From Candidatus Heimdallarchaeota archaeon (GTDB lineage: Archaea; Asgardarchaeota; Heimdallarchaeia; Hodarchaeales; Hodarchaeaceae): a stretch of DNA of 49,125 nucleotides. Position 1 is the stretch's first letter; every line of letters begins with the position of its first letter. The position numbers and the translations under genes are program-made. The notes below the pieces were generated by a model. That model made no database searches and was not told the DNA's origin. It saw only the letters and a list, made by a program, of their open reading frames with translations. Shown piece by piece: positions 2,931 through 14,440 of the stretch. Location of the stretch: contig JBHLSH010000018.1 of NCBI GenBank assembly GCA_048881705.1, positions 1 to 49,125 on the forward strand. Reading direction: 5' to 3'.

Positions 2931-5900
2931 ATTATCTAGGAAAATTGAGGTCGGCCCGCCAGTAACAGTAGTGTCTGTTCGACCAACCTTGTCAGTAATT
3001 GTGATTGTAATCGTATACTCCCCATCGCTAAACAGATTGGACAAACTGATGGTTGAATCGAACGGACTCGTTTGCCCTGCCACTGCATCGGAGGCACGAT
3101 CTGCAGCATTAATCATATTTACAACAGTAATATTAAACACATTTGTTTCAGTAAAAGGAATCCGATAGGTGGCAGAAGCACGAATTCCTTGATCATAATA
3201 ATCATGCGTAGCATTGGTATAATCTGCATCGGTGAATGAGGTTGTTCCAAGGATTGGGGCGGTCTCATCAACAAACCCAAGATCAGAGCGAACGATCCCC
3301 TTGTTTCCTACTCGATCGACTGCGACTGCATAAAAAGTATAAGTCCCATCGGCGCCGATATCGACGGGATAAGTATACGGATCATTACTGGATAGATCGA
3401 AGCTCGGATTACTATTATCGACGTCATAAACAGCTTGGTTTCCTCCTGCTCCACCGTTATATTCCATATACATGTTGTACCAGGCAGGAGCAAAACTTCC
3501 CGATCCGGGATTAGTGGGCGATGCCAGAGTTGGATCGGCGCCACCTGATTGCCCCCATCGGCCTCGTGATTCTTGCCAATCTCCCTTCAAGTTATTCCCT
3601 GAAGTTGCATAATAAAGCCCGGTATCTAATGCCACGCTCATCCAGACAATGGTATCTGCAGAAACTAGAGTGTCAGGGATATCAATACGATTCCACCCTG
3701 CCGACACCACCACATTAAACGCCTCGGCTTGTTTTGTAGCCGTAGTCGGATTGGACAATGTTCCTCCTGTATACAGGGCCACAGCCGCGGTACCAGATCC
3801 TGTGGTTCGAATCCAAAGATGAGTGACCGTGATTGCTGTACTAGGAGAAGTACCTCCCATATAACGGTAATTTGCAAAAGTCTCCGAATTAGATGCATTT
3901 ATGGCAAGGCCAAAATCACCTTTTTCTGTAATTGGAGCCCGATCGATACTGAATCCTGCTCCGTCCTGATCCCAATCAGAATAACCAGGTATCAGAGAGT
4001 CACCAGTGACGGAGATAGAGGCCATTTCCGGAGCAGATGTGTCCGAAAGAGTCCGAATCGTAATGGTTGTGGCGACTCCGTTACGATTGACGATGAATGT
4101 GTTGATATCCGCTTCGGCATTGGTATTTGAATGATAATTCGCAGAATAATAAGGTGCGGCCGTATCACTGACTTCTGTTCCCCCCCAGCCCGATTCGAAA
4201 ATGACTTGCCAGGCTCCACCAGCATTCCAAGAACCTTCATTGATGGTGATGTTCCAGATGGAATCCCCGGCTTGACCAAGGTAGAGGGTTCCGGAGGTAA
4301 TCGCGGTAGGATTAGAAATCCACGCATATGATGGAGTGGAAAGACTCCAGCTCCCAGTCCCGTTAACATCTATTGTGAACCCACTGGGAGCCGCAGTTGA
4401 ATAATAAACGTTAATACCTGCACTACCATTGGCCCAGTTTCCAACCCGATCTTGGATAGCATATTGAATGCTCTGAACACCCTCTCCTGGAAATGTGGTA
4501 CTCACATCTACGCCATCTGCGTCAGCAGAACCAACGTTGCCCGTTGAACTTTTGATATAATATTGGAGGATTCCTGCACCCGTTCCGTCGCTCCAACCAG
4601 ATGCGTCGGCGGTGTATGCGGCATCATCGTAGAATGCATCATAAACCCCAAAACCCCCTCCATAAGGAGCAAATCCGTCTCCAGTATTATCAGTTATATC
4701 AAAATCTGTCGTCCAGCTTCCCCCAGTAGGGTTGGCGTCATCCCAACCAATATCCGGAAAAGTTAGGGCGGGATCTAAATAGACATCGGTTCCAAACGGA
4801 TTATTGGGGCCTACAATGGCTGCGCCAACAGTAATGCCATCAAATGTAATCACCGAACCAACTGGATCTTCCTCCGGCTCTATTGTGGTGGTACCTCCGA
4901 CATTCCCTGTGGTACTACCGAAGTAGGTGGGATTTAGGCTGTGGCCTACGGAAAGTTCCCCCAGATATGGATCACCTGTCACATTCCAAACTGCCGTGAT
5001 TTTAATCCGAATGAAATCATCGGGAGAACCATCATTATTGTCCCAGTAACGAGACCCATTATATTCGGTATTCTGGATCTGAATATCCGTGATTTTAACC
5101 AATTCTTGCTGCTCCTGATCTACAGTTACAGTTGGATCAGTACTCACCCCTGCTCTGAGGGCCCACATGCCGATTCGCATTCCTCCGTTGGATTTGAACA
5201 TGAGATGCCCACTAGATGGAAAATTATCTCCAGAGTTCGCTGTATAAGTTACGTTCCAAGTTGACGGCTCATCCCGACCCACTTTCCAAACACGGGCTTT
5301 CATGGTATCTCCTACGAAACTGAATTTGTATAGATACCAAGTAGTGGTTGAAAAGCTTCCTGTTGCAGAACTAAGTGTGTAAATTGTACCATTATAGCGC
5401 TCAAGTCGTAGATAGGGAGAGGAGGACACGTGCGTTACCCTGAGGTCGTCGGATGGGGAGGCATCAGACCTAAGATGAATCGATGCCTTCGTTCCAGCGC
5501 TAGTTGTTAACTTTCCTAATACAATGATTTCATTATTGGTCGTCAGAAGATTGGATCTGTTTAAATAATCGTTTATGGCACCAGAATGAAGTGCTATGTC
5601 TTCAGTGATCCACCATCCCATATTTGTTGGTTTAGAAGTGTCTAGAGCTACCACCCAATTCGCAGCTAGGTTATAATTGTTCAAATTCTTACTAGAAAAG
5701 TCATCATAATCGAGAAAAACCTTGCTCGTAGAGTTAGGTGGAATTCCAGGGTTTCCCTGGACACCGTAGAAAATCGCGTAGTTATTGTCTGAACTACTAG
5801 CTGAAACTGCTTTTTGAAGACGAAAGAAAACCGCAGATTTTTGGGAGTTATTATTGAGGATAACACGATTCAGTTCGTACCAGGTCGAATCTGTTTGATT

Positions 5901-7548: not shown

Positions 7549-8442
7549 CTAATCCTTGCAAAACCGTTCAAAGATCAAGGAAGCTAATTTTGCTGGTGTT
7601 TGACCAAATAAATACAATATGGGTTCAAGACCGATCCCCCCTGTGTCGGCAATACCGTGAATAGCTGGGACTTCTTCTTTGGGGATTCGACCTAACGTCC
7701 CGTCCCAATCTTTATCTCCTTCAACCGTACGTTCGATCACCATGTCTGAAACCTTGTCCAATATTTTACCTTTTGATCTTAAGGAGATTAAACTCTGAAA
7801 TGATGAGCCATGTTTTTGAAAAAAGAGTAGAATCTTGGCAAGAGTAGGCCCTTGACCAATCTCGGGAGGGGAAACAATTCTACCTTGGCGTTTTACCCTT
7901 ACAATTCGACCTGGAAACCCAATGCTTTCCTTATTGACAGTATAGATAAATTGACATCCAATTTCAGGGATAAGGTCCCCGAATTTTCTTCCAGCGCCAA
8001 TGAGCAGCTGTGCTGCTTCATATAATTCGATAGTGGCCTGTAGATTTTTACTGAAGGTTAGTGAAAGTTCTTGGGAGGGAAAACAGAGGTCACACCCTAC
8101 AGGAAAATCAAGATTTCCCTGTTTTCTATGAACATCACAAAGCGGTCCTGCACTGCGCATTTTTTGACAGACTTCACAGGTAGTAGTCATGAGTTCGAGC
8201 GGAGTGAGAGTTTCTGCTTTGATATCCACCACTAAGTTCTCTACCAATTCTTCAATAGCCTGTTTGAAAATCGCTGGACTGGGAGAGTCTGTTGATAGGT
8301 ATGATGAAACCACAGGTTGTGAAACCCCTAGAATTTCTGCAATTCTCGTTTGGACATATCCTAGACTGGAGAGTTCACGCGCAAGGGCCCGACGAAAGGG
8401 TGTTAAGAACGCTACGGGCACTAATTCACATACAAATCTCAT
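7549..8442 (-). CDS. thiR: ThiR-type transcriptional regulator (HTH fused to ThiN/thiamine-phosphate-synthase-like domain)
   Basis: The N-terminal HTH is QTRIAEILGVSQPVVSSYL. C-terminal ThiN-like motifs are LIPEIG, GFPGRIV and DTGGIGLEP. It lies beside a thiamine ABC transporter. Confidence 0.8.
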   Translation of the reverse strand: MRFVCELVPVAFLTPFRRALARELSSLGYVQTRIAEILGVSQPVVSSYLSTDSPSPAIFKQAIEELVENLVVDIKAETLTPLELMTTTCEVCQKMRSAGPLCDVHRKQGNLDFPVGCDLCFPSQELSLTFSKNLQATIELYEAAQLLIGAGRKFGDLIPEIGCQFIYTVNKESIGFPGRIVRVKRQGRIVSPPEIGQGPTLAKILLFFQKHGSSFQSLISLRSKGKILDKVSDMVIERTVEGDKDWDGTLGRIPKEEVPAIHGIADTGGIGLEPILYLFGQTPAKLASLIFERFCKD

Positions 8443-8538
8443 CTATCACCCTCAATAAGTAGCGCTTAAAGGTCAATTATAGAATCGAGCTATGAATGAC
8501 GCCGCCTATTAATAGTTTTTTCCCCGAGATGCAAATAT

Positions 8539-9435
8539 ATGGAAACGGATCCCATAATAAAGGATATTCCGAAAGGTCTCTTGCCTGAGCATTTTTCCTC
8601 GCTTAGTTTAATAGAAACCGGATTAAACAACAGAAATTATCTCATAGATCGGGCTATAGTTATTAAAAGATACCTACCTCATCAGGAAGCCACTGATCCC
8701 GCTAGAGAACGGTTTTTTAGAGAAAAAGAAGCATTAAATATCTTGAAAGGCAATCCACATGCTCCAAAAATTCTACAATGGATTGTACAAGATGACCAAT
8801 TCTTCCTGGTTCGAAAATGGATAGAGGGGAACCTTTTGACGTCCGATATGATCCAGGGAAATCCCACCCGTGTTGTAGATGCACTAGCAGCTATTCATTC
8901 GGTAAACATATCTTTAGAAGCAGCAAAAATGCGGCATCTCGCATGTTTAGATTATTCTCAAATCATATCAGGTTACCTTAAGGCATACAAGTCAAGTTAC
9001 CATCGTGAAAAACTGTCAGATGATCTCCCTCCCCCGAAGGAAATTGAGAGAATCCTCGAATATTCCGTGAAAACATACAGTATTGATCGTCTTAAAGAGA
9101 ATCAAGTACTTCTCCATGGAGATTTAGTTTTTTCCAATGTTTTAGTGACCAAAAAACATGTCATATTGATTGATTGGGAATATGCGGCCCTGGGTTCTCC
9201 CCTTATCGATATCACCTATTTAATCACGCAGAATGATATGACTCGAGAAACCAAGAGAAACATCATAGAAGATTATCAGGAAAAAACCGGATTTTTAATT
9301 GAAGACGATGCGATTCAAGCCACCTCAATCCTGCTAAAAGTGATGTCGGGTATTTGGTACTCCCTAAATTTGAAGAGGGGAGGTAAATTTCTTTATCAGG
9401 CTCGAGCCCAGTTCGAATCGCTCGGGATAGACTGA
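8539..9435 (+). CDS. APH/choline-kinase-family phosphotransferase, candidate thiamine kinase (ThiK-like)
   Basis: It has the motifs GLNNRNY, HGDLVFSNVL and LIDWEYA. The substrate is inferred only from its position between thiR and thiQPB. Confidence 0.7.
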   Translation: METDPIIKDIPKGLLPEHFSSLSLIETGLNNRNYLIDRAIVIKRYLPHQEATDPARERFFREKEALNILKGNPHAPKILQWIVQDDQFFLVRKWIEGNLLTSDMIQGNPTRVVDALAAIHSVNISLEAAKMRHLACLDYSQIISGYLKAYKSSYHREKLSDDLPPPKEIERILEYSVKTYSIDRLKENQVLLHGDLVFSNVLVTKKHVILIDWEYAALGSPLIDITYLITQNDMTRETKRNIIEDYQEKTGFLIEDDAIQATSILLKVMSGIWYSLNLKRGGKFLYQARAQFESLGID

Positions 9436-9443
9436 GTGGTTTA

Positions 9444-10556
9444 TCATGAATAAAACCTGACTGCACCTGGGTCAATCTTAACAGTCACCTTATCTTCTAG
9501 ATGGAAAAAATCTTCTTCAATTGGACCGTAGGTTCGAATCATGGTTTGTTGATTTCGTGCAGGCAATATAGGGGAGGAGGTGCTAGCTGTAACACTAATC
9601 AGCACAACAGACTTATGAATCATGGGTTCTGGGACAATCGCTATTATTTCGCCGTAGAGTGAGTTCGGGGGGAGAGTGTCGTCAAACTGTGCTTTGGCGA
9701 CGGAAAGGTGTAAGGGGTCGAGATGGATACCTCTCGCTTGGGGTGGTATTTGTATCCTAGATTCGGGAATACGAATTTCTCCGAGATCTGTGTGGATGAT
9801 ATGTTCAGATTTCTCTTTATCAAGGCTAACCGTGTTTATTAATAGAATATTTTTCAGTCCCAAGGTCATGGCTACCTTTAATGACTTTGGATGCAAGTTT
9901 ACTGTTTTAGGGGAGCCAACCTGAAGAGTTTTACCCTCATCCATTATTACCAGTCTATCAGCAAGCATTTTGGCTTCCTGTAGGTCATGTGTTACAAATA
10001 AGGTGGTGATAGCTTCGTTTTTTTGAAGTTTACGTATGTACATTGCTAATTGTTCACGTAAATGTGAATCAACGTTGCTTAGAGGCTCATCCAACAATAT
10101 CAGGTTGGGTGACGGAGCTAAAGCCCGTAATAAGGCCACTCGTTGAGATTGTCCTCCAGATAACTCATAAGGTCGTCTTTCAAGGAGTTCTAATAGTCCC
10201 CCAAGACGAGCTAACTCCAAAACTCTTGTATGGACTTCTTCCTTCGTGTGTCCATGCAGACCGAACGATAGGTTCCCGTACACTGTGAGGTGGGGGAAAA
10301 GCGCTTGATTCTGGGGAACGTATCCAATCTTCCTTTTTTCGATCGGTAAGTTTAGCAAATCGACCTTGTTTACTCGAATGGTCCCTCTTTGAGGTGTTAG
10401 AATGCCTACAAGGATTCTGAGCAATGTAGTTTTTCCGCAGCCCGATGGTCCGACAAGAGCTAAAAGTTCACCTTCACTCCCTTCCAAAGAAATTCCATTG
10501 AGTACCCAAATCCTGTTATACTTGAAATATAGATTCTCTACTTCTAGGAAGGCCAG
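9444..10556 (-). CDS. thiQ: Thiamine ABC transporter ATP-binding protein (probable CTG start)
   Basis: Walker A is GPSGCGKTT, the signature is LSGGQSQRV and Walker B is LILLDEP. The ABC domain extends upstream of the track start (10487) as AFLEVENLYFKY...VLNGISL, to a CTG at 10556 bounded by an in-frame TAA at 10562-10560. Confidence 0.8.
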   Translation of the reverse strand: MAFLEVENLYFKYNRIWVLNGISLEGSEGELLALVGPSGCGKTTLLRILVGILTPQRGTIRVNKVDLLNLPIEKRKIGYVPQNQALFPHLTVYGNLSFGLHGHTKEEVHTRVLELARLGGLLELLERRPYELSGGQSQRVALLRALAPSPNLILLDEPLSNVDSHLREQLAMYIRKLQKNEAITTLFVTHDLQEAKMLADRLVIMDEGKTLQVGSPKTVNLHPKSLKVAMTLGLKNILLINTVSLDKEKSEHIIHTDLGEIRIPESRIQIPPQARGIHLDPLHLSVAKAQFDDTLPPNSLYGEIIAIVPEPMIHKSVVLISVTASTSSPILPARNQQTMIRTYGPIEEDFFHLEDKVTVKIDPGAVRFYS

Positions 10557-10583
10557 TTCTTACCACCTGGTTATGTTTCGGCG

Positions 10584-12296
10584 CTAGAATCGAAAGTCAA
10601 GGCGTCCTAGTTTCTCAATGATAATGAAGCTAATGGTTGAAAGAAGGATGAGAACAGTGGAAAAGGCTGCCGCTGGAGCCACATTTCGCGTATTAATCAG
10701 CCGATATATTCCTACTGGTATTGTGGCAAAATTGGCACGTGCCAAAAATGTTGTTGCTCCGAATTCCCCTAAAGAAATTGCAAAGCTAAAGAGTCCAGCC
10801 GCCACAATTCCTGTTAATAACAGCGGAATCTGAATTCTGAGCCACGTATTAAAGCGAGACGAGCCTAAACTTCGGGCAACGCCAATTGTAGAGGGATCGA
10901 TGTTGGCCTGTGTTGCCGCAATTATGCGATAGGCAAAAGGAAAAGCAACGAGTGTATGAGCTATAATTATTGCTAGATTAATGAAGTCACGGTATAATGG
11001 TGAGTTTTGGTACAAAGTTAGGAGTGAAAATGCCAAAGTAATTGAGGAAACAGCCAATGGTAGTACCACGACTATCTCGCCAAACGTTGTTGCCAAGGAA
11101 CGATTAGTGGATGTCTTATATGTCGTTCTGTAACCGATACCCGTACTGAAAAGTAGAGCTAGCAGGGTGGCCAAGATCATCACCACTAATCCAAAGAATA
11201 GGGTATTCATTACCATATCTAGTGGAAGAAGTCCTATATAGCTTCGAATTCCAGGATCTAATAGGCGTATAAAAGACTCTAACGAGAAAGACTGGTCATT
11301 GGGAAACAACGAGACTAAAAACACACCAAGAATCGGATATAAGCAAACCATTCCAATCAGAAAGAAGTACGCTCCAACCCCGATCAACGGAATAACTTTG
11401 TCAAGGCTTAAGGAACGGGACAGAAGAGGTTTTTCATATCTGGAATATTGCGCGGAAATCGGTATTTCATACTTTTTCGTGAAATAAAGGTAGCACACAA
11501 TCATTACTAGGTTAAGAGAGAGTTGGACGAGAGTTAAAGCGGCGGCCGCTGAAAAATTGGTTTGTTTTGCCAACCAAAAGATCCGTACCTCCAGCGTTTG
11601 ATACTGCACGCCACCCAAGACTAAAACCATGGCAAAGCTATTGAATGCATAAATGAATACCAACAGGGCTGCAGCTGCAGTAATTGGTAGGAGATGGGGA
11701 ATTTGAATTCGCCATAGAATTTGAAATTTTGATGCTTTCATACTTTTCGCAACAGCTACAAGATCAGGATCGATATTTTTCCATCCTATCTCAGTCAACC
11801 TTATAATCACGGGAATATTGTAAAAAATATGGGCCAAAAGGATACCTTCATAGCTATTGTAAATCTCAATCAAGATTGAGCCCGTCAGGGCACTCCACAT
11901 TCGGTTAATTGGACTCCCGTGGCCAAACACCTCAATGAAACCGATCAGAACCACAATGGGTGGGAGAATAAATGGGATGGTGAGGAGATTGCGGAGAATA
12001 TTCTTCCCTGGAAATTGATATTTTGTGAAAATATAGCTTCCTGGGAGACCAAGAATAATACACAATCCTGTGGTGATAATTGCCTGCTGAAAATCCCAAT
12101 AAAGGAAGTATTGATTTAACGGGTGTGATAAAACTTCAACTATGTTTTGAAAAGTGATGAAATATTCGCTTTGCGACCCATTAGTGAGAGCTAGAACAAG
12201 GATACGTAACAAGGGGAGAACAAAAAAGAGTATTAGAAAAATCACTGGAAGAAATAAGATTAGAAGTTGCTCCGTCCTCTGTTTATCGAAGGCCAT
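10584..12296 (-). CDS. thiP: Thiamine ABC transporter permease (duplicated BPD_transp_1 domains)
   Basis: It is a multi-TM protein with two EAA-like loops (VAKSMKASKFQILWRIQIP; VARSLGSSRFNTWLRIQIP). The likely start is the ATG at 12296 (MAFDKQR). Confidence 0.85.
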   Translation of the reverse strand: MAFDKQRTEQLLILFLPVIFLILFFVLPLLRILVLALTNGSQSEYFITFQNIVEVLSHPLNQYFLYWDFQQAIITTGLCIILGLPGSYIFTKYQFPGKNILRNLLTIPFILPPIVVLIGFIEVFGHGSPINRMWSALTGSILIEIYNSYEGILLAHIFYNIPVIIRLTEIGWKNIDPDLVAVAKSMKASKFQILWRIQIPHLLPITAAAALLVFIYAFNSFAMVLVLGGVQYQTLEVRIFWLAKQTNFSAAAALTLVQLSLNLVMIVCYLYFTKKYEIPISAQYSRYEKPLLSRSLSLDKVIPLIGVGAYFFLIGMVCLYPILGVFLVSLFPNDQSFSLESFIRLLDPGIRSYIGLLPLDMVMNTLFFGLVVMILATLLALLFSTGIGYRTTYKTSTNRSLATTFGEIVVVLPLAVSSITLAFSLLTLYQNSPLYRDFINLAIIIAHTLVAFPFAYRIIAATQANIDPSTIGVARSLGSSRFNTWLRIQIPLLLTGIVAAGLFSFAISLGEFGATTFLARANFATIPVGIYRLINTRNVAPAAAFSTVLILLSTISFIIIEKLGRLDFRF

Positions 12297-12331
12297 TGAT
12301 TGATTACCCAATTCCTGCAGCAAATGCAAGG

Positions 12332-13570
12332 TTACAGGTCTTTCTTGCTTTTTCTCTGGATGATTATAGGGATCGCGAAAAAGACCACGATAATCAAGGT
12401 AGTGGGCGTATCAAATCCAGGAGTCGTTTTTACGATTGCCTTTTCCCATTCGTCTTGCCAATACGATAGATACTGTTTTAACATGGTTGGAGGAATCAGA
12501 TCATTCAGTCGATTTACAGTGTCTGGCGCAATTGTAGATTCTTGGAAACAGGAGGAAAGTTTTGCTTCTGTATTTGCAGGATACATCCATTGATGTTCTG
12601 GGAGTTCCGATTGAAGATTGGCTCCCAAGAACCAGTCGATAAAGGCTTTCCCGTTCTCGGGATGGGGACTGTTTTTCACAAGCCCAATTCCTTCAATTTG
12701 TAACCATGCGTTAGACATTCCATTCTCGTGTGTTACGAGGGCAGAAGTTGTGTTGTCTCCCCATTGGCAATACCCATAAGCTGGAGACGTCCCGTAAGAA
12801 ACCATTATTGATCTGTTTTCCTCAGGTTCAAAGAAGATCCCAAAGGCGTCTCCCCAGGATTTGGTTATCAAAAGACTATCACTGGCGCTACGCCACCATG
12901 TTCTCCAGTCCTGTTTTAACATTCCATCAAAATCTACCATAGGGTCACCATACACGGCGATTGTCCATAGCAGAAATCCTAATCCAGGACTGCTAAACTT
13001 TGGGTTTTCAACAATTAGCATAGAGAGTAAATCGGAATCTAAAAGCGAGTTCAAGGTAAGGTTGACAAGTTCCGGATGTGAGGAGGCATTAATGAGGGTA
13101 TTCCAGTAATAGAGCGCAATAATCCCATAATCATACGGAAGGAGATACTTTTCAGGATCTAGGTTCAAAATTAGGTTTGAATCGAGCTGGTTGATATTCG
13201 GGGGAGTATACTTTTCGAGCAGCAGGCTCTTGTTTTCAATAAGATGAATTAATGCATTATCGATACCAATAACTACATCTGCTTGAGGTTGGGGTTGCTC
13301 TGCAAGCAGTCGCGTCACAATATCATTGCCATCTCCTAATCTAGTAATTTGGATATCGTTTCGAGGTATCCCTGAAACCTCAGAAAAGTTCCCAATGAGG
13401 TCATATTCAGGATCATCGAACAAACTCTCATAAGTGTAAATTACAAGCTGTGATACATTTGCTCGAGTCGGGGAAAGCAATCCTACTAAGTTTACAGCAT
13501 AGGGGATAACTAGACCGTAGAATAATAGGAATACCATTAATACGGATAATCCTATTCTGTAGCGCCTCAA
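12332..13570 (-). CDS. thiB: Thiamine ABC transporter substrate-binding protein with C-terminal TPGF-TM-basic anchor
   Basis: It has TbpA/ThiB-like motifs QADVVIGIDN, PYDYG, SSPGLGFL and QIEGIG, an N-terminal signal/TM, and the C-terminus TPGFDTPTTLIIVVFFAIPIIIQRKSKK. Confidence 0.85.
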   Translation of the reverse strand: MRRYRIGLSVLMVFLLFYGLVIPYAVNLVGLLSPTRANVSQLVIYTYESLFDDPEYDLIGNFSEVSGIPRNDIQITRLGDGNDIVTRLLAEQPQPQADVVIGIDNALIHLIENKSLLLEKYTPPNINQLDSNLILNLDPEKYLLPYDYGIIALYYWNTLINASSHPELVNLTLNSLLDSDLLSMLIVENPKFSSPGLGFLLWTIAVYGDPMVDFDGMLKQDWRTWWRSASDSLLITKSWGDAFGIFFEPEENRSIMVSYGTSPAYGYCQWGDNTTSALVTHENGMSNAWLQIEGIGLVKNSPHPENGKAFIDWFLGANLQSELPEHQWMYPANTEAKLSSCFQESTIAPDTVNRLNDLIPPTMLKQYLSYWQDEWEKAIVKTTPGFDTPTTLIIVVFFAIPIIIQRKSKKDL

Positions 13571-13702: not shown

Positions 13703-13723
13703 TAATATATGTGTCGTATATTA
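13703..13723. promoter_or_regulatory. Palindrome TAATATA-N7-TATATTA upstream of thiB; candidate ThiR operator
   Basis: The 7-bp arms are perfect and lie ~135 nt upstream of the thiB start. The link to ThiR is inferred. Confidence 0.35.
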
Positions 13724-13804
13724 GGGCCCTATAGCAAAGTTAATAGGATCTGATCACCGCTTCAATTGAATTAACAGTTAAAGGGTTAAATTTCCTGCAG
13801 TCTT

Positions 13805-14440
13805 CTACCCGTTGTCCGTATTTAAACTTTCATTTATCGCACTAGAATGCGTGTTGGCTTCGTTCAATAGAGTGGGTGGCAAACCAAGCTGGGAATTTTT
13901 GGCCCAATCGATTACTTCTTTGATCCATTTCCCACAACATCTGCCTGCTGGATTAGTGATTTTGCAATCTTTCCCCTTATTGGCCCCAGTATACTCCTTG
14001 ATATCCTGTAAAGAGTCACAGCACTTCTTTATAAGAAGCTCATAAAGAATCTGCTCTTCTAGGACGCCCGTGCAATAGCACATTGGACGTCCTTCTGTTC
14101 GGATTTCCATTTTTTGCATTACAGCAACGCGCAGATCTGATCGGCCGAAGTAACTTTTAGTCATGTTATTAAAATAGACTACAGGGCAGCCCCGCTCGCT
14201 ACAAAAGTAAAACCCTTCTTCGGTAAGATGTACCCAATATGCAGGATGTACGTGGTTCGTCATTGTTATTTTCCGAAGAGCGAGCCCGTTAGTCCCTGAA
14301 ATAGGACAGAAAGTTGTGTCAGTTTTACCCTCTTCGTGGCCATTGGTTGACTCAAAGGCGAGCACATCTCCCCCCACTGATATCACTGTTTTTGTAGAAG
14401 GTCCCATCTCGAAAAGAACCCCAAGGTCACTAAACACCAA
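13805..14440 (-). CDS. Stand-alone CopZ-N-terminal-like protein (Zn-binding + BFD-like [2Fe-2S] domain)
   Basis: The Cys pattern CPISG...H...FYFCSERGCPVVYF...CYC...C..TNPAGRCC resembles the N-terminal domain of Archaeoglobus CopZ. The start codon is uncertain. Confidence 0.7.
   Translation of the reverse strand: MVFSDLGVLFEMGPSTKTVISVGGDVLAFESTNGHEEGKTDTTFCPISGTNGLALRKITMTNHVHPAYWVHLTEEGFYFCSERGCPVVYFNNMTKSYFGRSDLRVAVMQKMEIRTEGRPMCYCTGVLEEQILYELLIKKCCDSLQDIKEYTGANKGKDCKITNPAGRCCGKWIKEVIDWAKNSQLGLPPTLLNEANTHSSAINESLNTDNG

Follow-up and report, generated by a model that had tools for sequence, protein, structure and literature searches.

A candidate thiamine kinase in a ThiR-linked importer cluster of Hodarchaeales-like Asgard archaea

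The window analysed here is a stretch of 49,125 nucleotides from a Candidatus Heimdallarchaeota archaeon (contig JBHLSH010000018.1, assembly GCA_048881705.1), within which we studied a cluster of five genes that appears to form a thiamine salvage module. Central to it is the gene for P0001 (8539-9435, forward strand), a 298-residue protein of the APH/choline-kinase fold that we describe, on the evidence of Pfam and NCBIfam profiles, its motif and an AlphaFold 2 (AF2) model, as a candidate thiamine kinase. Divergent from it, across a 96-bp promoter region (8443-8538) identified by reading the sequence, lies thiR (7549-8442, reverse strand), encoding a regulator with an N-terminal helix-turn-helix (HTH)-like region and a C-terminal ThiN sensor domain resembling thiamine phosphate synthase. 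Three genes on the reverse strand converge on the kinase: these encode a ThiQ-like ATPase of the ATP-binding cassette (ABC) type that carries a regulatory extension at its C-terminus (9444-10556; PF00005, 115.6 bits; probable CTG start at 10556), a ThiP-like permease of 581 residues with two fused BPD_transp_1 domains (10584-12329; PF00528 in two stretches), and a ThiB-like substrate-binding protein of 412 residues (12332-13570; TIGR01254) that has a membrane segment at its N-terminus and ends in a PGF-CTERM-like tail. This layout agrees with a preliminary description of the same DNA, which had recognised an APH/choline-kinase-fold gene between a divergent thiR and a convergent thiQPB; all five genes have the positions and orientations it gave, and the 8-bp gap it noted is the spacer 9436-9443 between the kinase stop codon (9435) and the thiQ stop codon (9444).

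By its profile scores the kinase belongs to the APH/choline-kinase superfamily and stands outside the curated ThiK equivalog. It matched PF01636 (APH) with 61.8 bits (cut-off 23.2) and PF01633 (Choline_kinase) with 38.5 bits (cut-off 29), while its top NCBIfam match, the ThiK model TIGR02721, reached 66.5 bits against a cut-off of 299.45, and another ThiK model, NF007620, 20.3 bits against 206. The interpretation given in the preliminary description, with the kinase as a candidate archaeal ThiK, is supported overall by our analysis, with the caveat that a score so far below the cut-off is not that of a ThiK orthologue. The AF2 model, with a predicted local distance difference test (pLDDT) score of 89, gave Foldseek matches to the choline kinase LicA (template modelling score, TM, 0.74) and to APH(2'') (TM 0.72), and the protein displays the hallmarks of the superfamily, namely a bilobal fold with the catalytic HxDxxxxN loop, an Asp that binds metal, and a Lys/Glu pair for ATP binding. 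Its best sequence match in the PDB was again LicA (4R7B, E 7.7e-5), and no solved chain named as a thiamine kinase was among the sequence or fold matches listed. Since the residues of the catalytic motif (K43, E62, H193-G-D195-L-x-x-S-N200 and I-D212-W-E-Y) are invariant across 21 homologues, the kinase should be enzymatically active.

A word-indexed search for relatives of the kinase returned 32 clusters, all from Asgard metagenome-assembled genomes (MAGs) or metagenomes (with Thor-, Hod-, Heimdall- and Promethearchaeota labels), which databases call 'phosphotransferase' and JGI calls 'thiamine kinase-like enzyme'. When 1.84 billion representatives were searched exhaustively with a profile, the family proved to have a sharp edge, with full-length members at 322-516 bits, three proteins at 85-108 bits, and then a plateau at 60-73 bits. 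Among the 93 plateau proteins, 91 matched ThiK TIGR02721 and 89 matched the guanitoxin kinase GntI, all below cut-off. In a tree of 132 rows the window's kinase family formed a clade with a Shimodaira-Hasegawa-like approximate likelihood ratio test (SH-aLRT) support of 99, while E. coli ThiK and gammaproteobacterial ThiK-like rows fell elsewhere. The phylogeny against ThiK that the preliminary description had suggested thus recovers no grouping with ThiK, in a tree whose deep nodes are unsupported.

The genomic setting of the kinase was followed by scanning one genome per species, which yielded 17 Asgard loci (L001-L017). In all 17, wherever the contig permits, the kinase is linked to ThiR and to a ThiB-type importer; a kinase lacking thi neighbours, the finding that the preliminary description had named as refuting its proposal, did not turn up among them. 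ThiR is divergent from the kinase in the related loci, either adjacent to it or within about 1.7 kb, with one additional gene separating the two in three loci. At most loci the kinase is co-directional with thiB-thiP-thiQ and immediately upstream of it; the transporter is inverted in the window, L001, L008, L015 and L017. Two types of transporter occur, with binding proteins either 57-63% or 36-39% identical to that of the window, and the kinases themselves are 30-36% identical to the window's, with the exception of L001, a near relative, at 77%. The genes have thus stayed together through inversion and exchange of the transporter, at kinase identities of 30-36%. As controls, we considered distant metagenome relatives, 78 of 80 of which had no ThiB or ThiR homologue in the fetched DNA (flanks of ±3 kb), and bacterial relatives, for which the same was true of 60 of 63 (±8 kb). 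The adjacency of kinase and thi genes, repeated in 17 of 17 loci, goes far beyond chance.

When 201 Asgard genomes were sampled, the kinase family was present in 10 of the 11 genomes from the window's own family and in none of the other 190; a count over the whole family found it in 19 of 22 genomes, as a single copy each. Among the genomes sampled, it is thus sharply delimited to one Asgard family, which is Hodarchaeales-like and includes Ca. Hodarchaeum mangrovi. The Asgard origin that the preliminary description had guessed is borne out. One of the 17 loci, L007 (LJUQ01000002.1), is filed as 'Bacteroides sp. SM23_62_1' and carries a full Asgard ThiR-kinase-thiBPQ cluster, with a ThiR 51% identical to the window's; it is probably a mis-binned Asgard contig.

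Turning to the thiamine pathway, the window's genome, an assembly of 3.96 Mb with a completeness of 90.9% and a contamination of 7.5%, encodes ThiL, the enzyme that converts thiamine monophosphate (TMP) to thiamine pyrophosphate (TPP), with a score of 219.7 bits (cut-off 184). Neither TPK nor ThiC was found in this 90.9% complete genome, which also yielded no ThiN besides ThiR and no genuine match to ThiD, ThiM or Thi4; the candidates for the last three were either marginal matches within a 516-residue open reading frame (ORF) or Rossmann N-termini of unrelated flavoproteins. ThiE was rejected as well, as the sole PF02581 match in the genome (28.6 bits) is a contig-end fragment that scores better as OMP-decarboxylase/HUMPS (41.3 bits). 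Across the window's family, ThiL is present in 18 of 21 further genomes, and it is nearly universal across the class, while TPK and ThiC occur in none of the family's 11 genomes in the phylum sample. TPK exceeded its cut-off in just two of the 201 Asgard genomes, and ThiC was absent throughout the class in that sample. From this inventory the archaeon seems unable to make thiamine and would be a vitamin B1 auxotroph. ThiL being the only downstream enzyme, imported thiamine would become usable through the missing step, its phosphorylation to TMP. The order of import, conversion to TMP and action of ThiL proposed in the preliminary description fits this inventory, in which ThiL is present and ThiC, TPK, ThiD, ThiM, ThiE and catalytic ThiN were not found.

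The importer is best read as a ThiB-type system with generic partner subunits. Its binding protein reached 153.1 bits with TIGR01254 (cut-off 93.4), which places it in the ThiB subfamily, but scored 95.4 bits against the 317 demanded by the stricter thiB equivalog; among solved structures it has one strong relative, TbpA, which binds thiamine in E. coli (2QRY, E 6.9e-28 over 338 residues), and the next match is at E 1.7e-4. The permease aligned over its full length with ThiP models (NF006952, 139 bits, positions 49-529 of 534), sharing their two-domain fusion, at no more than 139 bits against equivalog cut-offs of 395-984. The ATPase scored 152.7 bits with ThiQ TIGR01277 (cut-off 245), and PhnT- and PotA-type models outscored the ThiQ model. 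For this last gene the listed TTG start at 10487 truncates the conserved N-terminal strands that precede Walker A, and the frame is open upstream to a TAA at 10562-10560. Within it, a CTG at 10556 following GGTGG is the sole start-like codon, no ATG, GTG or TTG being available before the conserved strands, and the protein extended to this CTG aligns with its L001 orthologue from residue 1; CTG 10556 is thus the probable thiQ start. In the ThiB-like protein, the C-terminus (12332-12440) has a PGF motif, after which come a hydrophobic stretch and then basic residues, resembling a PGF-CTERM (archaeosortase) signal, and this tail coexists with the N-terminal membrane segment.

The regulator is assigned through its C-terminal half, where residues 140-290 matched the ThiN domain PF10120 with 70.3 bits (cut-off 25) and, among solved structures, the ThiN domain of 2PB9 came closest (E 3.7e-7). 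The approximately 135 residues that precede this domain gave weak HTH-type matches, to the Aca1 HTH (E 0.5-0.9, residues 15-65) and to YdaS_toxin (18.6 bits, under the cut-off of 30). It is the sole ThiN match in the window's genome, and orthologues with 45-89% identity adjoin the kinase in the related loci. In the wider sample ThiR was found in 92 of the 201 Asgard genomes, almost all of them in ThiC-less families (f1, f2, f3, f10 and f16), and in none of the 40 genomes of the ThiC-positive family f13. The two proteins, ThiR and ThiC, nearly exclude each other among Asgard families, and in Asgard archaea ThiR seems to govern salvage and transport rather than synthesis. Published work treats ThiR as the thiamine regulator of archaea (PMC12029414, PMC10746257), the two papers citing Rodionov et al. 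2017 and Hwang et al. 2017 on the archaeal protein, and in Pyrococcus it has been described as a regulator of thiamin transport (PMC10746257). The window shares with the archaeal ThiR regulons a regulator with a C-terminal ThiN-like domain adjoining thiamine transport genes; those regulons as described, within the reach of our literature searches, comprise synthesis and transport genes, whereas the window adds an APH-type kinase. Our literature searches, which did not cover the primary ThiR papers, found no report of such a kinase as a ThiR-linked gene.

In the 2017 work of Rodionov et al., thiamine phosphate (TMP) is said to be the effector of ThiR, required for its binding to palindromic, lineage-specific operators. 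The window contains no TPP riboswitch at Rfam gathering thresholds. Two candidate elements lie in the thiR/kinase intergenic region (8443-8538), an inverted repeat (TATAG-N7-CTAT, 8478-8493) and a palindrome (CTATTAATAG, about 8506-8515). Upstream of thiB, just before a TATA-like stretch, lies a further candidate regulatory element, CTATAGGGCCCTAATATA (13717-13734, reverse strand), which is conserved in L001 and has a counterpart, TATAG-N5-CTATA, in the thiB-upstream regions of L008 and L017. The pattern TATAG-N(4-8)-CTAT is enriched in the window (8 observed against 1.5 expected) and is not specific to thi genes. An exhaustive search of 20 related intergenic regions for palindromes with 5-mer half-sites, spacers of 0-15 and at most one mismatch found none common to at least 8 of the 20, and a universal ThiR operator was accordingly dropped. 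Two metagenome scans for closer relatives that could serve in footprinting yielded none above 31% identity.

Three independent links to thiamine, namely a regulator with a ThiN domain, a binding protein of the ThiB subfamily and ThiK as the best curated family of the kinase, together with the conserved neighbourhood and its controls, the gap in the pathway, the intact kinase and the parallel cases described below, lead us to favour a thiamine salvage module in which the kinase probably acts as a thiamine kinase that feeds ThiL and supplies the co-repressor of ThiR. Thiamine would be taken up by the ThiB-like binding protein together with its fused permease (ThiP-like) and ATPase (ThiQ-like), and the kinase would use ATP to phosphorylate its hydroxyethyl group, giving TMP (the chemistry of EC 2.7.1.89), by means of a Brenner-type HGDLxxSN loop and the metal-binding Asp of IDWEY. 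ThiL, encoded elsewhere in the genome, would then turn TMP into the cofactor TPP, while the ThiN-like domain of ThiR would bind thiamine phosphate, such that the module is repressed when TMP and TPP are plentiful. We infer in this scheme the substrates of the kinase and the transporter as well as the effector and the operator of ThiR.

Alternatively, the kinase might act on some other thiamine-related import, such as the thiazole alcohol HET, an analogue or antivitamin, or a degradation product, in salvage or detoxification. HET and thiamine analogues share the hydroxyethyl group targeted by ThiK, sequence scores do not discriminate between substrates of the kinase, and ThiB-subfamily proteins that fall under the thiB equivalog cut-off, as here, may bind related ligands. 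In the absence of ThiD, ThiE, catalytic ThiN and ThiM from the inventory, however, HET-phosphate or pyrimidine precursors would not be convertible to TMP, and with ThiL as the sole downstream enzyme TMP would be the only useful product; we consider this alternative improbable. It is likewise hard to believe, though the Pfam matches to Choline_kinase and APH, the closest solved structures (aminoglycoside kinases and LicA) and the lack of thiamine context for most of the distant relatives all lean that way, that the protein is a kinase of the choline/ethanolamine or antibiotic type whose sole connection with thiR is their common divergent promoter region. Such a chance neighbour would not be expected to stay adjacent in 17 of 17 loci despite 65-70% divergence, operon inversion and transporter replacement, or to lie mostly co-directional with and directly upstream of thiB-thiP-thiQ, and a second, distant kinase is found in the same operon in a sister family (see below). 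The fold is, finally, common to eukaryotic-like protein kinases, and weak Pfam matches to RIO1 and PK_Tyr_Ser-Thr, both below cut-off, might hint at a regulatory protein kinase or pseudokinase that modulates ThiR or the transporter. Yet the strongest matches are to small-molecule kinases, and the choline-kinase-type IDWEY motif in a compact protein of 298 residues without an activation-segment region fits a metabolite kinase, leaving a regulatory role very improbable indeed.

Several observations weigh against the assignment to thiamine that we favour. The substrate of the kinase cannot be fixed from its sequence: ThiK (66.5 bits) and GntI (63 bits) score alike, both far below cut-off, and a profile comparison (hhalign) with E. 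coli ThiK gave a probability of 77% at about 22% identity. In the tree, the sister of the window's family is an uncharacterised group (P0049/50/51/68; SH-aLRT 82), and ThiK does not join them. No ThiR operator was definable, whether by the palindrome search over 20 regions or by pattern scans, and the gene absences described above are provisional because the genome is 90.9% complete with 7.5% contamination. Nor is a kinase obligatory, since in three inspected loci of family f10 (L104, L105 and L109), which is itself without ThiC and TPK hits over cut-off, a divergent pair of ThiR and thiB-thiP-thiQ has no kinase within it or next to it. ThiR is also carried, without a kinase of the window's type, by other Asgard families that lack ThiC and show no TPK over cut-off. 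Some Asgard archaea therefore manage without this kinase, perhaps through imported phosphorylated forms or another enzyme as yet unknown; E. coli ThiBPQ imports TMP and TPP too.

To our knowledge ThiK has been characterised only in enterobacteria, and the remark in the preliminary description that it knew of no ThiK-type kinase characterised in archaea is consistent with full-text literature searches of incomplete coverage, which found none; nor did searches of the same kind, again incomplete in coverage, find a paper linking Asgard archaea to a thiamine kinase. ThiK of E. coli and Salmonella (YcfN; EC 2.7.1.89) belongs to the same superfamily as the window's kinase (E. coli ThiK matches Pfam APH with 54 bits), is of similar size with HxDxxxxN and DWEY motifs, and has the role proposed here, the conversion of thiamine to TMP ahead of ThiL. 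Its genomic setting differs: E. coli thiK lies between lpoB and nagZ, with neither thiBPQ nor a regulator, whereas the window's kinase is embedded in a ThiR/thiBPQ cluster and limited to one Asgard family. LicA (4R7B) and APH(2''), the best structural matches, are 14-19% identical to the kinase, and the locus offers no choline or antibiotic context. Choline and thiamine are both compounds in which a cationic nitrogen centre bears a hydroxyethyl group.

A similar coupling of kinase and importer recurs in a sister family of Heimdallarchaeia (f2), where the layout is ThiR-thiB-thiP-thiQ followed directly by another APH/choline-kinase-like protein, P0182. This protein shares 23% identity with the kinase of the window (probability 96% in hhalign) and is present in 26 of 31 f2 genomes, with no true match in the window's family; in at least 11 genomes it shares a contig with ThiR, at a distance of about 5 kb. 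In the 132-row tree the P0182 type formed a long-branched clade with a support of 100. An approximately unbiased (AU) test did not reject a single clade of both Asgard kinase types (p 0.61); an independent origin of the two is therefore not supportable, and we make no claim of independent recruitment. At one f2 locus (L108:3008-3814, reverse strand; G133:C11), the second-type kinase (P0182) shows homology from immediately behind the thiQ stop (3817), with no canonical start until a GTG at 3673, which suggests a non-canonical start or translational coupling, reminiscent of the oddity of thiQ in the window. The next gene of that operon (L108:1985-2977, reverse strand) is of the Zn-dependent alcohol-dehydrogenase family. 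In bacteria, thiamin salvage has been connected with a reductase, oarX (PMC11223231), so the alcohol-dehydrogenase-family gene may be of interest.

Comparable arrangements were seen in bacteria. In two Reinekea MAGs (L025 and L037) and one Zoogloeaceae MAG (L060), a ThiK-like kinase stands back to back with a thiB-thiP-thiQ operon that is preceded by a TPP riboswitch. The riboswitches (RF00059, 62-70 bits) lie at 7502-7603 in L025, 7473-7562 in L037 and 5620-5725 in L060; the two kinases that were scanned had ThiK scores below threshold (103.5 bits in L025 and 70.7 bits in L060), and the one ThiB scanned, that of L025, is a true thiB equivalog (375 bits). The kinases of these loci are likely unannotated bacterial thiamine kinases. 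In layout the bacterial loci resemble the module studied here, with an APH-fold, ThiK-like kinase below cut-off placed divergently from thiB-thiP-thiQ, though the kinases are only about 27% identical to that of the window, over the C-terminal part; their control is by an RNA riboswitch (RF00059), in contrast to the ThiR protein of the window. With the f2 family and the bacterial cases, APH-fold kinases that fall below the ThiK cut-off are thus repeatedly coupled to thiamine importers.

The conversion of imported thiamine to TPP is poorly described in archaea that cannot make the vitamin. We lean, by a narrow margin, towards the broader view that two deeply diverged APH-fold lineages, that of the window and the P0182 type of the sister Heimdallarchaeia family, are the missing archaeal thiamine kinases, providing together with ThiL the only route to TPP in these Asgard archaea without ThiC and TPK, and that their product TMP is the co-repressor of ThiR. 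Were this so, ThiR would sense the flux through uptake and phosphorylation rather than the TPP pool. Were the kinase of the window confirmed as a thiamine kinase, the ThiR regulon would gain an enzyme, a pathway gap would be filled in a lineage close to the root of the eukaryotes, annotation would gain a new thiamine-kinase family in place of the present labels 'phosphotransferase' or 'aminoglycoside phosphotransferase', and vitamin dependencies could be better predicted for the cultivation of Asgard archaea. The chemistry and the superfamily are known; what is new is a lineage-specific family in a ThiR-linked genomic setting.

Beyond the module, and with no evident link to thiamine, a gene on the reverse strand (13805-14440) encoding a zinc/2Fe-2S-binding protein that resembles the N-terminus of CopZ (PF18423, 49.9 bits; NF045877, 94 bits, under its cut-off) adjoins thiB, and this neighbour is kept in L001.

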